NCBI RefSeq assembly: GCF_013315695.1
Contig: NZ_CP054353.1
Direction: 5' to 3' (one strand)
Source of the DNA: Escherichia coli
Lineage (GTDB): Bacteria > Pseudomonadota > Gammaproteobacteria > Enterobacterales > Enterobacteriaceae
DNA length: 64,000 nt
The notes under the pieces were generated by a model that had not been told where the DNA came from, searched no databases, and saw only the letters and a program-made list of their open reading frames with translations. Within the stretch, counting starts at the first letter, position 1. Each line of letters starts with the position of its first letter. Positions 7,887 to 54,127 of the stretch are shown here, in pieces. Position numbers and translations under genes: made by a program.

Positions 7887-8909
7887 ATGACACTTCATCG
7901 CTTTAAGAAAATCGCCTTACTTAGCGCTCTTGGCATTGCCGCAATCTCTATGAATGTGCAGGCCGCAGAGCGTATTGCATTTATTCCCAAACTGGTTGGC
8001 GTGGGATTTTTTACCAGCGGTGGCAACGGCGCACAACAAGCGGGTAAAGAGCTGGGCGTTGATGTGACCTACGACGGGCCGACAGAACCCAGTGTTTCTG
8101 GTCAGGTACAGTTGATTAATAACTTCGTCAATCAGGGCTATAACGCCATTATCGTTTCTGCGGTTTCGCCTGATGGCTTGTGTCCGGCACTGAAACGCGC
8201 CATGCAACGTGGTGTGAGAGTGCTGACCTGGGACTCTGATACTAAACCGGAGTGCCGCTCTTACTACATTAATCAGGGAACGCCCGCCCAGTTGGGAGGT
8301 ATGTTGGTGGATATGGCGGCGCGTCAGGTGAATAAAGACAAAGCCAAAGTCGCGTTTTTCTACTCAAGCCCCACCGTTACGGACCAAAACCAGTGGGTGA
8401 AAGAAGCGAAAGCGAAAATCGCCAAAGAGCATCCAGGCTGGGAAATTGTCACTACGCAGTTTGGCTATAACGATGCCACTAAATCGTTACAAACCGCAGA
8501 AGGAATATTAAAAGCCTATAACGATCTCGACGCCATTATCGCCCCCGATGCCAATGCCCTGCCCGCTGCCGCACAAGCCGCAGAAAACCTGAAAAATGAC
8601 AAAGTTGCGATTGTCGGATTCAGTACGCCAAACGTGATGCGTCCATATGTGGAACGCGGCACGGTGAAAGAATTTGGCCTGTGGGATGTGGTTCAGCAAG
8701 GCAAAATATCAGTTTATGTCGCGGATGCATTATTGAAAAAAGGATCAATGAAAACGGGCGACAAGCTGGATATTCAGGGCGTAGGTCAGGTGGAAGTCTC
8801 GCCAAACAGCGTTCAGGGCTATGACTACGAAGCGGATGGTAATGGCATCGTACTGTTACCGGAGCGCGTGATATTCAACAAAGAGAATATCGGCAAATAC
8901 GATTTCTGA
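7887..8909 (+). CDS. lsrB: LsrB, periplasmic AI-2 binding protein
   Basis: 340 aa with signal peptide ([26 protein letters not shown]) and periplasmic sugar-binding fold; synteny. Confidence 0.9.
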
Positions 8910-32103: not shown

Positions 32104-33291
32104 ATGAACTTATCCCTACGACGCTCTACCAGCGCCCTTCTTGCCTCGTCGTTGTTATTAACCATCGGACGCGGCGCTACGCTGCCGTTTATGACCATTT
32201 ACTTGAGTCGCCAGTACAGCCTGAGTGTCGATCTAATCGGTTATGCGATGACAATTGCGCTCACTATTGGCGTCGTTTTTAGCCTCGGTTTTGGTATCCT
32301 GGCGGATAAGTTCGACAAGAAACGCTATATGTTACTGGCAATTACCGCCTTCGCCAGCGGTTTTATTGCCATTCCTTTAGTGAATAACGTGACGCTGGTG
32401 GTGCTCTTTTTTGCCCTTATTAACTGCGCCTATTCCGTCTTTGCTACCGTGTTGAAAGCCTGGTTTGCCGACAATCTTTCGTCCACCAGCAAAACGAAAA
32501 TCTTCTCAATCAACTACACCATGCTCAACATTGGCTGGACCATCGGTCCGCCGCTAGGCACGCTGTTGGTGATGCAGAGCATCAATCTGCCCTTCTGGCT
32601 GGCAGCTATCTGTTCCGCGTTTCCCATGCTTTTCATTCAAATTTGGGTAAAGCGCAGCGAGAAAATCATCGCTACGGAAACAGGCAGTGTCTGGTCGCCG
32701 AAAGTTTTATTACAAGATAAAGCACTGTTGTGGTTTACCTGCTCTGGCTTTCTGGCTTCTTTTGTTAGCGGCGCATTTGCTTCATGCATTTCACAATATG
32801 TGATGGTGATTGCTGATGGTGATTTTGCCGAAAAGGTGGTCGCGGTTGTTCTTCCGGTGAATGCTGCCATGGTGGTTACGTTGCAATATTCCGTGGGCCG
32901 CCGCCTTAACCCGGCTAACATCCGCGCGCTGATGACAGCAGGCACCCTCTGTTTCGTCATCGGGCTGGTCGGTTTTATTTTTTCCGGCAACAGCCTGCTA
33001 ATGTGGGGTATGTCAGCTGCGGTATTTACTGTCGGTGAAATCATTTATGCGCCGGGCGAGTATATGTTGATTGACCATATTGCACCGCCAGGAATGAAAG
33101 CCAGCTATTTTTCCGCTCAGTCTTTAGGCTGGCTTGGTGCGGCGATTAACCCATTAGTGAGTGGCATAGTGCTTACCAGTCTGCCGCCTTTCTCGCTGTT
33201 TATCATCTTAGCGTTGGTGATCGTTGCTGCGTGGGTGCTGATGTTAAAAGGAATTCGTGCAAGACCGTGGGGGCAGCCCGCGCTTTGTTGA
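32104..33291 (+). CDS. ydeE: MFS transporter YdeE
   Basis: 395-aa 12-TM MFS protein; synteny. Confidence 0.85.
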   Translation: MNLSLRRSTSALLASSLLLTIGRGATLPFMTIYLSRQYSLSVDLIGYAMTIALTIGVVFSLGFGILADKFDKKRYMLLAITAFASGFIAIPLVNNVTLVVLFFALINCAYSVFATVLKAWFADNLSSTSKTKIFSINYTMLNIGWTIGPPLGTLLVMQSINLPFWLAAICSAFPMLFIQIWVKRSEKIIATETGSVWSPKVLLQDKALLWFTCSGFLASFVSGAFASCISQYVMVIADGDFAEKVVAVVLPVNAAMVVTLQYSVGRRLNPANIRALMTAGTLCFVIGLVGFIFSGNSLLMWGMSAAVFTVGEIIYAPGEYMLIDHIAPPGMKASYFSAQSLGWLGAAINPLVSGIVLTSLPPFSLFIILALVIVAAWVLMLKGIRARPWGQPALC

Positions 33292-33417
33292 TTTAAGTCG
33301 AACACAATAAAAATTTAATTCAGCCTTCGTTTAGGTTACCTCTGCTAATATCTTTCTCATTGAGATGAAAATTAAGGTAAGCGAGGAAACACACCACACC
33401 ATAAACGGAGGCAAATA

Positions 33418-33513
33418 ATGCTGGGTAATATGAATGTTTTTATGGCCGTACTGGGAATAATTTTATTTTCTGGGTTTCTGGCCGCGTATTTCAGCCACAA
33501 ATGGGATGACTAA
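33418..33513 (+). CDS. mgtS: Small membrane protein MgtS (YneM), 31 aa
   Basis: ATG preceded by RBS (aacggaggcaaataATG); translation MLGNMNVFMAVLGIILFSGFLAAYFSHKWDD; below the 60-aa cutoff of the ORF track. Confidence 0.85.
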   Translation: MLGNMNVFMAVLGIILFSGFLAAYFSHKWDD

Positions 33514-33540
33514 TGAACGGAGATAATCCCTCACCTAACC

Positions 33541-33580
33541 GGCCCCTTGTTACAACTGTGTACAAGGGGCCTGATTTTTA
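33541..33580 (+). terminator. Rho-independent terminator after mgtS
   Basis: Stem ggccccttgt/acaaggggcc followed by tgattttta. Confidence 0.7.
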
Positions 33581-33588
33581 TGACGGCG

Positions 33589-33705
33589 AAAAAAAACCGC
33601 CAGTAAACCGGCGGTGAATGCTTGCATGGATAGATTTGTGTTTTGCTTTTACGCTAACAGGCATTTTCCTGCACTGATAACGGATCGTTGACACAGTAGC
33701 ATCAG
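33589..33705 (-). ncRNA. mgrR: Probable PhoP-dependent sRNA MgrR
   Basis: Minus-strand unit between mgtS and dgcZ: PhoP box upstream, then terminator stem (plus 33597-33614) and U8 (plus 33589-33596). 5' end not determined. Confidence 0.6.
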
Positions 33706-33720
33706 TTTTCTCAATGAATG

Positions 33721-33737
33721 TTAAACGGAGCTTAAAC
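33721..33737 (-). promoter_or_regulatory. PhoP box (GTTTAA-N5-GTTTAA) of the mgrR promoter
   Basis: Minus strand reads GTTTAAgctccGTTTAA, a perfect direct-repeat PhoP box; it overlaps the dgcZ stop codon. Confidence 0.65.
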
Positions 33738-34622
33738 TCGGTGAATCACGTTTTGTTCGTCAATAAACATGCAGCGATTCCTTCCGGTTTGCTTACCCTC
33801 ATACATTGCCCGGTCCGCTCTTCCAATGACCACATCCAGAGGCTCTTCAGGAAATGCGCGACTCACACCTGCTGTCACGGTAATGTTGATATGCCCTTCA
33901 GAATGTGTGATGGCATGGTTATCGACTAACTGGCAAATTCTGATACCTGCACGACATGCTTCTTCATCATTAGCCGCTTTGACAATAATGATAAATTCTT
34001 CGCCACCGTAGCGATAAACCGTTTCGTAATCGCGCGTCCAACTGGCTAAGTAAGTTGCCAGGGTGCGTAATACTACATCGCCGATTAAATGCCCGTAGGT
34101 ATCATTAACCAATTTAAATCGGTCAATATCCAACAACATTAAATAAAGATTCAGAGGATCAGCATTGCGTAACTGATGATCGAAGGATTCATCAAGAACC
34201 CGACGACCCGGCAATCCCGTCAGAACATCCATATTGCTACGGATCGTCAGCAAATAAATTTTGTAATCGGTTAATGCCGCAGTAAAAGAAAGCAACCCTT
34301 CCTGAAAAGCGTCGAAATGCGCGTCCTGCCAGTGATTTTCAACAATAGCCAGCATTAATTCCCGACCACAGTTATGCATATGTTGATGGGCAGAATCCAT
34401 TAGCCGAACGTAAGGTAATTCATCGTTATCGAGTGGCCCCAGATGATCAATCCACCGACCAAACTGGCACAGTCCATAAGAATGGTTATCCGTTATTTCT
34501 GGCTTACTGGCATCTCTCGCGACCACGCTGTGAAACATACTTACCAGCCACTGGTAGTGGGCATCGATAGCCTTATTGAGATTTAACAAGATGGCATCAA
34601 TTTCCGTTGTCTTCTTGATCAT
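33732..34622 (-). CDS. dgcZ: Zinc-sensing diguanylate cyclase DgcZ (YdeH)
   Basis: CZB domain plus GGDEF domain (GGEEF); likely start at MIKKTTEIDAIL. Confidence 0.9.
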   Translation of the reverse strand: MIKKTTEIDAILLNLNKAIDAHYQWLVSMFHSVVARDASKPEITDNHSYGLCQFGRWIDHLGPLDNDELPYVRLMDSAHQHMHNCGRELMLAIVENHWQDAHFDAFQEGLLSFTAALTDYKIYLLTIRSNMDVLTGLPGRRVLDESFDHQLRNADPLNLYLMLLDIDRFKLVNDTYGHLIGDVVLRTLATYLASWTRDYETVYRYGGEEFIIIVKAANDEEACRAGIRICQLVDNHAITHSEGHINITVTAGVSRAFPEEPLDVVIGRADRAMYEGKQTGRNRCMFIDEQNVIHRV

Positions 34623-34876
34623 TGCCACTCCTTTTTCACAGTTCCTTGTGCGCGCTATTCTAACGGGAGAAAAGCAAAATTACGTCAATATTTTCATAGA
34701 AATCCGAAGTTATGAGCCATCTCTGAGATAACATTGTGATTTAAAACAAAATCAGCAGATAAAAAAGTGTTTAATTCTATAAATTAACTCTGCATTATCG
34801 CAATTAAAAGGATGACAAATAGCATAACCCAATACCCTAATGGCCCAGTAGTTCAGGCCATCAGGCTAATTTATTT

Positions 34877-50801: not shown

Positions 50802-54127
<3,326 letters not shown>

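Follow-up and report, generated by a model that had tools for sequence, protein, structure and literature searches.

Where does a gene for a zinc-regulated diguanylate cyclase end, and where does magnesium control begin, when a PhoP-like direct repeat lies across its stop codon? The question arises in a 64-kb stretch of Escherichia coli DNA, here called the window, in which small PhoPQ-controlled genes abut dgcZ. The locus is the already-described E. coli magnesium-stress cluster mgtS–mgtT–mgrR beside dgcZ; it belongs to the core of the species, being found in 5416 of 5426 complete genomes. All of its genes had been annotated and published before, and they are textbook members of the PhoPQ regulon. 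The gene order is ydeE - mgtS - mgtT >< mgrR - dgcZ, with mgtS and mgtT on the plus strand and mgrR and dgcZ on the minus strand (Table 1). Comparison with mgrR and mgtS of MG1655, the check proposed in the original prediction, gave an ungapped alignment at 99%, with mgtS, mgtT, mgrR and dgcZ annotated there at matching positions. NCBIfam equivalog models recognize MgtS, DgcZ and YdeE. Control of the cluster by PhoPQ is taken from the literature, with which the prediction agrees. The best overall explanation, and one in which confidence is high, is that of a known locus with two facing PhoP-activated promoters, back-to-back terminators and a dgcZ gene co-directional with mgrR. The plus-strand promoter would give mgtS and the overlapping mgtT, and the facing minus-strand promoter would give MgrR. 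In published Term-seq data, the two units end at terminators 13-20 nt apart (33576 on the plus strand, 33596/33589 on the minus strand).

Table 1. Features of the mgtS–mgtT–mgrR–dgcZ locus, in window positions
Feature	Positions	Strand	Basis or remark
Predicted PhoP box of mgtS promoter, AATTCA-gcctt-CGTTTA	33317..33333	+	Read from sequence, conservation
Predicted mgtS -10 hexamer, TAATAT	33346..33351	+	Inferred; 12 nt after proximal CGTTTA half-site
mgtS (yneM), 31-aa membrane protein	33418..33513	+	ORF, NF033842, RefSeq annotation, codon-position variation
mgtT, 34-codon ORF	33513..33617	+	ORF; annotated b4775 / WP_212734532.1
mgtS intrinsic terminator	33541..33579	+	Hairpin 33541-33571, T-run 33575-33579; inside mgtT ORF
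mgrR rho-independent terminator	33589..33615	-	Scan, stem conservation, Term-seq; antisense to last 29 nt of mgtT
mgrR, 98-nt Hfq-dependent sRNA MgrR (Rfam STnc560)	33589..33686	-	Rfam, MG1655 alignment, fold
mgrR extended -10, TGcTACTGT	33693..33701	-	-15..-7 relative to 5' end 33686
Conserved predicted PhoP box of mgrR, CGTTTA-acatt-CATTGA (half-sites 2 + 3)	33711..33727	-	Cross-genus conservation
Extra distal half-site 1, aGTTTAa, contains dgcZ stop	33732..33738	-	With half-site 2 forms perfect repeat
dgcZ (ydeH), zinc-regulated diguanylate cyclase	33732..34622	-	NF007380, RefSeq; directly upstream of mgrR, same strand

The 31-codon mgtS, translated as MLGNMNVFMAVLGIILFSGFLAAYFSHKWDD, had been proposed as a gene lying below an ORF cut-off, and it is one. 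It matches NCBIfam NF033842 ('protein MgtS', equivalog) over residues 1-31 of 31 with 80.6 bits against a cut-off of 35, is annotated by RefSeq and is identical to the RefSeq MgtS (YneM) protein, with the 31 residues and single hydrophobic helix of that family. Its variation falls mostly at third codon positions (0.26, versus 0.05 and 0.03). According to the literature, MgtS raises MgtA levels and intracellular Mg2+, and expression of yneM/mgtS depends on PhoP. Upstream of mgtS, 29 unique sequences drawn from several genera share the arrangement rATTCA-N5-yGTTTA, then a gap of 12 nt and a -10 of the form TAnTAT, which is conserved as TAATAT or TACTAT. A 17-codon ORF further upstream (33365-33418), joined to mgtS by a TAATG junction, was rejected as a conserved gene: its ATG is E. 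coli-specific, being ATA in E. whittamii and absent elsewhere. At the other end, the terminator region (33500-33600) folds with -29 kcal/mol (z -3.4), and the published 3' end at MG1655 1622804(+) maps to 33576.

The gene list of the original prediction was right for mgtS and MgrR and missed mgtT (b4775), which lies in the same interval. Its ATG overlaps the mgtS TAA by 1 nt (TAATG), and the ORF runs through the mgtS terminator to end antisense to the mgrR terminator. MgtT is published as a translated small protein of an mgtS-mgtT operon; the full-length product has been detected by tagging, and neither deletion nor overexpression of mgtT gives a phenotype. The protein shares 33 of 34 residues with that of K-12, at the same length and with the same 1-nt TAATG overlap; the one difference, T15 here and V in K-12, falls in the loop of the mgtS terminator hairpin. 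No NCBIfam model exists for MgtT. Across genera, conservation extends from the start over about 14 codons, and the length varies from 7 to >47 codons. As a conserved protein, MgtT was rejected: only the start and the hairpin-encoded residues are kept, and the third-position bias is weak compared with that of mgtS.

On the minus strand, the identity of the 'probable MgrR' is now firm. Rfam model RF01407 (STnc560) matches in full (1-214) at 33720..33507 with 280.2 bits against a gathering threshold of 55 and an E-value of 4.9e-64; a literature search joining STnc560 with MgrR found nothing. The ungapped alignment to b4698 of MG1655 leaves 97 of 98 nt identical, at an orthologous position between mgtS/mgtT and dgcZ. 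Locus, strand, neighbours, terminator and seed are those of K-12 MgrR, and the sole mismatch is nt 4, which is C here and U in K-12, C being the state in most other genera. The predicted stem-loop and U8 run exist: an 8-bp stem ACCGCCGG-TTTA-CTGGCGGT occupies 33615..33596 and the U8 run 33596..33589, the first U of which pairs in the stem. The published Term-seq end at 1622824(-) maps to 33596 with a score of 2.4e6. The stem is conserved in 27 sequences with one compensatory pair. RNAalifold on these 27 sequences recovered the terminator only, the 5' stem-loop being too divergent to align; this stem-loop folds in the single sequence, and no covariation is claimed for it. The whole RNA folds with -25.9 kcal/mol (z -2.9). 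Columns A45-G75 are invariant in the 27 sequences (at least 12 genera), 21 nt of them being the retrieval pattern itself. The published single-stranded pairing region is U55-A68 (PMC6239178). MgrR represses eptB, ygdQ and other targets through Hfq-dependent pairing, and its PhoP-dependent, low-Mg2+-induced expression and Hfq dependence are likewise described in the literature. Pairing with these targets would proceed via the invariant UAUCCAUGCAAGCA region.

The prediction also needs revision at the promoter of mgrR. The perfect repeat GTTTAA-N5-GTTTAA is present as GTTTAAGCTCCGTTTAA at 33737..33721 (-), the sole match in 64 kb where shuffled sequences lead one to expect 0.01. It overlaps the dgcZ stop as claimed, the TAA at 33734..33732 (-) being the last three bases of the distal GTTTAA. 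The spacing of about 120 nt between box and terminator was a fair estimate, with 106 nt from the end of the box to the stem and about 125 nt to the U-run. The 5' end of the RNA (33686, the RefSeq MG1655 annotation transferred via the ungapped alignment) is 35 nt downstream of the repeat, so that MgrR does not begin at the box. With a PhoP box taken as a direct repeat having at most 2-3 mismatches to the consensus (T/G)GTTTA-N5-(T/G)GTTTA (PMC7667037), the perfect repeat qualifies: AGTTTA-agctc-CGTTTA differs from that consensus at 2 of 12 positions and occurs nowhere else in the window. However, the box conserved across genera sits one helical turn downstream of it. This second pair, CGTTTA-acatt-CATTGA, has 4 mismatches of 12 in E. 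coli and about 2 in Enterobacter-type promoters; it is present in all genera aligned (about 30 genera/species) and ends 12 nt before the -10. Alignment gives the pattern GTTTA-N6-rTTkA, a 12-nt gap and TGnTAnnnT. When counted on 53 unique enterobacterial promoters, the TG, TA and final T of the -10 are 92-100% conserved at fixed spacing; the counting anchor imposed part of half-sites 2 and 3, and the independent evidence is the -10 and the spacing only.

Relative to the annotated 5' end, half-sites 1 and 2 span -51..-35 and half-sites 2 and 3 span -41..-25, only the latter pair covering -35. E. coli PhoP boxes are described at the -35 region. The conserved geometry points to CGTTTA-N5-CATTGA (-41..-25) with the extended -10 as the core PhoP site of mgrR. 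Both promoters, that of mgtS and that of mgrR, lack a recognizable -35 and have 12 nt between the end of the PhoP direct repeat and the -10. Similarly, canonical E. coli PhoP promoters carry a direct repeat of 11-nt period over the -35 region and no -35 hexamer. They differ from the mgrR promoter of Escherichia, in which three phased half-sites occur (four in E. albertii), and in which the best-matching pair, placed a helical turn farther upstream than is canonical, overlaps a stop codon. A sigma-70 scan of 33200-33900 found no -35/-10 promoter, which is no more than expected for activator- and PhoP-dependent promoters and hence uninformative.

What lies upstream is dgcZ. DgcZ matches NCBIfam NF007380 (equivalog) with 519.5 bits against a cut-off of 256, aligned over 1-296 of 296. 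A stop-loss allele (TAA>TTA, +7 codons) carried by the GTDB E. coli representative was considered and set aside as a rare variant, since it occurs in 0 of 5426 complete genomes. A terminator scan detected nothing terminator-like from the dgcZ stop to the start of the mgrR terminator (33615), and the single minus-strand terminator downstream of dgcZ is that of mgrR. As dgcZ is co-directional with mgrR and lacks a terminator of its own, its transcription must extend across the mgrR promoter, and the dgcZ mRNA probably ends at the terminator of mgrR. A reading slightly favoured on this evidence is that dgcZ transcription passes through the mgrR promoter to the mgrR terminator and yields an mRNA with MgrR as its 3' UTR. 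Promoter occlusion, a PhoP roadblock near the dgcZ stop and PhoP-independent release of MgrR by processing could follow. The 46 nt between the stop and the MgrR 5' end probably leave Rho too little room to act ahead of the intrinsic terminator, and a dgcZ-like ORF in Citrobacter likewise ends 15-37 nt upstream of the box. The Term-seq table holds no 3' end assigned to dgcZ, which neither shows nor refutes read-through. Against this reading, the literature searched pairs mgrR with dgcZ just as neighbours and mgrR with ydeH nowhere, and most genera have mgrR without dgcZ upstream, which places any coupling outside the conserved biology of MgrR.

Some small RNAs, DapZ among them, are transcribed from a promoter of their own that lies at the 3' end of the preceding gene, with which they share a terminator. 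The mgrR gene would resemble this type, in that its promoter begins at the stop of dgcZ or immediately past it, on the same strand, and one terminator would serve both genes. In contrast to the DapZ type, MgrR is also kept in many genera that have no dgcZ upstream of it. It is therefore an sRNA gene in its own right, which dgcZ adjoins in Escherichia and Citrobacter, and not one derived from a 3' UTR.

A more tentative proposal concerns the distal half-site, which in Escherichia is a further phased upstream unit built from the last sense codon and stop of dgcZ (GTT TAA). By this proposal, half-sites 1 and 2 (-51..-35) are the functional PhoP site of E. coli, or all three half-sites are bound cooperatively; in the cooperative variant, mgrR would be unusually sensitive to PhoP-P, and in either variant the dgcZ stop codon would lie inside a working operator. 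With 2 of 12 mismatches versus 4 of 12 for the conserved pair, the distal pair is the best consensus match in the mgrR promoter and could be the stronger PhoP site in E. coli. A 34-mer spanning all three half-sites is exact in 5224 of 5426 complete E. coli genomes (96%), and the box-breaking stop-loss allele is absent from them. In E. albertii, an extra 11-nt unit, one helical turn long, keeps the stop-codon GTTTAA in phase, the dgcZ stop lying again within GTT TAA, and makes four units. MgrR is described as induced at merely moderately low Mg2+, and other promoters are known whose PhoP boxes lie beyond -35 in the upstream direction. The published account of an mgrR-lacZ fusion does not give the upstream limit of its promoter fragment. 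On the other side, half-site 1 positions carry at most 0.32 bits across the 53 promoters, and genera without it keep the remaining promoter intact, many with the same degenerate ATTGA third half-site. Moreover, GTT TAA encodes the final Val and stop of dgcZ, an ending that three Escherichia species keep as RV*, so that its conservation is explicable by coding constraint. Judged by the alignment, the half-site over the dgcZ stop is Escherichia-specific, with no conservation outside this genus; it may add PhoP affinity or be neutral.

Less probable still is a role for the plus strand, in which PhoP-driven read-through past the mgtS terminator would carry the full mgtT ORF and give a transcript complementary to mgrR and the 3' half of dgcZ, through which PhoPQ would be tied to the levels of MgrR and/or DgcZ. 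The mgtT stop (33617) lies 41 nt past the mapped mgtS 3' end, so that the tag-detected full-length MgtT requires such read-through. Antisense to dgcZ there is also a published region of Rho-dependent termination, at 1623270(+) or window 34042, with a Rho score of 2.83 (p 6.5e-8). Yet the 800-nt upstream counting window for this site takes in mgtS itself, the reads are few (164 upstream and 43 downstream) and the mgtT phenotypes noted above are nil.

The original prediction suggested that dgcZ and the PhoP-driven sRNA are transcribed convergently and that this could couple the cyclase gene to PhoP. In its favour stood nothing but the physical overlap between repeat and dgcZ stop, and strand assignment refutes it: dgcZ (33732-34622) and mgrR (33589-33686) are in tandem on the minus strand, where their co-directional transcription cannot collide. 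The convergent partners of mgrR are mgtS and mgtT. Published data do contain a form of convergent transcription onto dgcZ, but its source would lie on the plus strand, on the side of mgtS, and is not the mgrR promoter. At the level of method, a 31-codon gene and an sRNA, both missed by ORF cut-offs, proved recoverable from sequence alone; the strand logic and the overlapping small ORF were what went wrong.

Beyond the known locus, it is tempting to consider, as a long shot, that the Mg2+/PhoPQ and zinc/c-di-GMP modules of Escherichia are physically wired together at the dgcZ/mgrR junction in three ways jointly. The dgcZ mRNA would end at the mgrR terminator with full MgrR as its 3' UTR; the dgcZ Val-stop would be recruited as an additional PhoP half-site in helical phase, E. 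albertii having two such extra units, which would place PhoP-P on the end of dgcZ; and translation of the poorly conserved mgtT through the mgtS hairpin would set antisense read-through over mgrR into dgcZ, where Rho would stop it. If this were true, what matters would be that mgtT is translated, and not the protein that results. If real, the role of half-site 1, the dgcZ mRNA carrying MgrR and the mgtT-controlled read-through would connect magnesium sensing directly, in cis, with c-di-GMP signalling.

The ydeE-mgtS-mgtT-mgrR-dgcZ region is a core E. coli locus, matched in 5416 of 5426 complete genomes with a 701-nt query. It is already known, and the original prediction named it correctly. 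Window positions 33280-33760 align without gaps to MG1655 (99% identity), and both mgtS and mgrR of that strain fall in the predicted interval. RefSeq annotates ydeE, mgtS, mgtT and dgcZ here, and MG1655 carries in addition the ncRNA mgrR (b4698), on the minus strand between mgtT and dgcZ. MgtS, DgcZ and YdeE pass the NCBIfam equivalog cut-offs, MgtS being the short ORF that had been proposed. For dgcZ, a mechanical ORF list starts at a GTG two codons upstream (34622-34628, minus strand; 298 aa), while RefSeq and the NCBIfam model start at the ATG at 34622 (296 aa). Elsewhere in the window, isrC (RF01387) gives a full-length Rfam match at 53084-53206 (minus strand; 145 bits versus a gathering score of 39).

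Features of the mgtS-mgrR-dgcZ region, in window coordinates
Feature	Position	Strand	Basis
mgtS	33418-33513	+	31-codon ORF; MG1655 coordinates transferred via ungapped alignment
mgtT	33513-33617	+	34-codon ORF; MG1655 coordinates transferred via ungapped alignment
mgrR	33589-33686	-	MG1655 coordinates transferred via ungapped alignment
dgcZ	33732-34622	-	MG1655 coordinates transferred via ungapped alignment
Predicted conserved PhoP box of mgrR, CGTTTA-acatt-CATTGA	33727..33711 (-41..-25)	-	cross-genus layout
Predicted extended -10 of mgrR, TGcTACTGT	33701..33693	-	cross-genus layout
Predicted PhoP box of mgtS, AATTCA-N5-CGTTTA	33317-33333	+	conserved layout
Predicted -10 of mgtS, TAATAT	33346-33351	+	12-nt gap after box

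Independently of that alignment, Rfam puts STnc560 at 33720..33507 (minus strand; 280 bits versus a gathering score of 55). Because this match encloses the mgrR interval, the two names stand for one RNA here, and the match, with the position of b4698, confirms the identification first proposed as a probable MgrR. In the fold of the 98-nt RNA (-25.9 kcal/mol, z -2.9), a 5' stem-loop is followed by an open A-rich stretch and then the terminator, an 8-bp GC-rich stem-loop at 33615..33596 with U8 after it. According to the literature, mgrR and mgtS are convergently transcribed under PhoPQ control, and both are directly activated by PhoP. In Enterobacteriaceae bacterium RIT691, mgrR is duplicated, with seed matches at 1437 and 3031, 1.6 kb apart. 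The conserved PhoP-box promoter precedes one copy; the copy that adjoins mgtS has another upstream sequence, in which no good box is seen (4 mismatches). Two contigs with non-enterobacterial labels, a MAG labelled Caldithrix (L007) and one labelled Chryseobacterium (L052), carry an enterobacterial mgrR/mgtS locus, which looks like contamination or mis-binning; the L007 proteins are 97-100% identical to those of E. coli.

The perfect GTTTAA-N5-GTTTAA repeat proposed as the PhoP box is real. It occurs as GTTTAAGCTCCGTTTAA only once in the window, at 33737..33721 on the minus strand (0.01 expected from shuffles), and the dgcZ TAA (33734..33732) does lie within its distal GTTTAA. MgrR does not begin at the repeat; its annotated 5' end lies 35 nt further downstream. 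Promoters were compared at 67 loci from species-representative genomes, retrieved by the MgrR seed pattern and spanning Escherichia, Citrobacter, Salmonella, Enterobacter, Lelliottia, Leclercia, Kosakonia, Pluralibacter, Phytobacter, Yokenella, Huaxiibacter and Silvania. Their layout is constant, in alignment and in alignment-free counts over 53 unique promoters: yGTTTA-N5-yrTTkA, a 12-nt gap and an extended -10 TGnTAnnnT, whose TG, TA and final T reach 92-100% conservation at positions that the anchor did not impose. The conserved box is therefore made up of the repeat's second half-site and a more degenerate third. This box spans the -35 region, the location described for PhoP boxes in E. 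coli.

The first half-site, over the dgcZ stop, is well fixed within E. coli, an exact 34-mer with all three half-sites being present in 5224 of 5426 complete genomes. A contribution of the perfect pair to PhoP binding is nevertheless rather unlikely. Some room is left for it because its match to the strict consensus in E. coli is better (2/12 mismatches versus 4/12 for the conserved pair), but the first half-site, perfect in E. coli and E. whittamii only, carries at most 0.32 bits across genera (53 unique promoters), and its conservation is explained equally well by the Arg-Val-stop with which DgcZ ends, itself conserved. This extra half-site may still be functional. In E. albertii (L004), the promoter has an additional 11-nt unit (GTTTAACAGCT AGTTTTGCGCT GTTTAACATCT ATTGAG), so that four phased units, against three in E. 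coli, precede the mgrR -10; they lie about 110-66 nt before the seed match at 8853, and dgcZ likewise ends there in the most distal GTT TAA. In the draft genome of E. coli SCPM-O-B-8794, the dgcZ stop is changed from TAA to TTA; dgcZ would gain seven codons (LAPFNIH), ending at a TGA inside the third half-site. This allele was found in none of the 5426 complete E. coli genomes.

The mgtS promoter has the same layout as that of mgrR, kept in 29 unique sequences. Its 5' leader contains a motif (TTAAGGTAAGnGAGGAAAC, about 33371-33390, plus strand) strongly conserved in alignments of Escherichia, Citrobacter and related genera. A 17-codon ORF (MKIKVSEETHHTINGGK, then stop; 33365-33418, plus strand) overlaps the mgtS ATG with its TAA, forming a second TAATG junction; its ATG is E. 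coli-specific, being ATA in E. whittamii and absent elsewhere. It may be the 'CDS58' reported upstream of mgtST by PIRT-seq.

The original gene list was right for mgtS and MgrR and overlooked mgtT, inside the same interval. The mgtT ATG shares one base with the mgtS TAA (TAATG), and the last 29 nt of mgtT overlap the mgrR terminator in antisense. The literature describes mgtS-mgtT as a PhoQP-dependent operon and MgtT as a small protein, tagged and detected, with no phenotype upon deletion or overexpression. In published MG1655 Term-seq data (Adams et al. 2021, supplementary file 1), 3' ends at 1622804 (+), window 33576, and 1622824 (-), window 33596, the second at the mgrR terminator and with a very high score, indicate that the two units end back-to-back. 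The former lies in the T-run after the mgtS terminator hairpin (33541-33571, RNA fold), through which mgtT runs. As this major mgtS 3' end is within mgtT, 41 nt short of its stop, full-length MgtT needs terminator read-through.

The coding signature of mgtT is weak. At all loci that have mgtS, the overlapping ATG and about the first 14 codons of mgtT (MNGDNPxPNRPLVA) are kept, but ORF length ranges from 7 to >47 codons across genera. Variation in mgtS is concentrated at third positions (0.26 versus 0.05 and 0.03), whereas mgtT codons 2-9 vary at all three (0.15, 0.22, 0.28) and stops occur at codon 9 or 15 in 13/34 unique sequences, so that the peptide looks weakly constrained. The two mgtS terminator hairpin arms encode NRPLV and KGP, and the mgrR terminator, read as its reverse complement, encodes the Escherichia C-terminus GEKKPPVNRR; RNA elements largely dictate the MgtT sequence.

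Convergent transcription had been proposed to couple dgcZ to mgrR, which is impossible, since both are on the minus strand, in tandem. The dgcZ stop is 46 nt from the MgrR 5' end. As a terminator scan found no terminator-like site between this stop and the mgrR terminator, we infer that dgcZ transcripts cross the mgrR promoter and end at that terminator. On the plus strand, the Rho table of Adams et al. 2021 places a Rho-dependent, bicyclomycin-sensitive termination region opposite dgcZ, at 1623270 (window 34042; Rho score 2.83, p 6.5e-8), which suggests that some transcription crosses mgrR into the 3' half of dgcZ. Such antisense RNA, the only supported form of convergent transcription onto dgcZ, would originate from the mgtS side. 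Convergence of mgtS with mgrR is found in Escherichia, Citrobacter, Salmonella, Kosakonia, Pluralibacter, Phytobacter and Yokenella; no mgtS was found within 1.8 kb of mgrR in Enterobacter, Lelliottia, Leclercia, Silvania and Huaxiibacter. A dgcZ gene precedes mgrR in Escherichia and in some Citrobacter only; in the latter, the dgcZ-like ORF stops 15-37 nt short of the box. The dgcZ junction is, judging from this distribution, lineage-specific and outside the conserved biology of MgrR.
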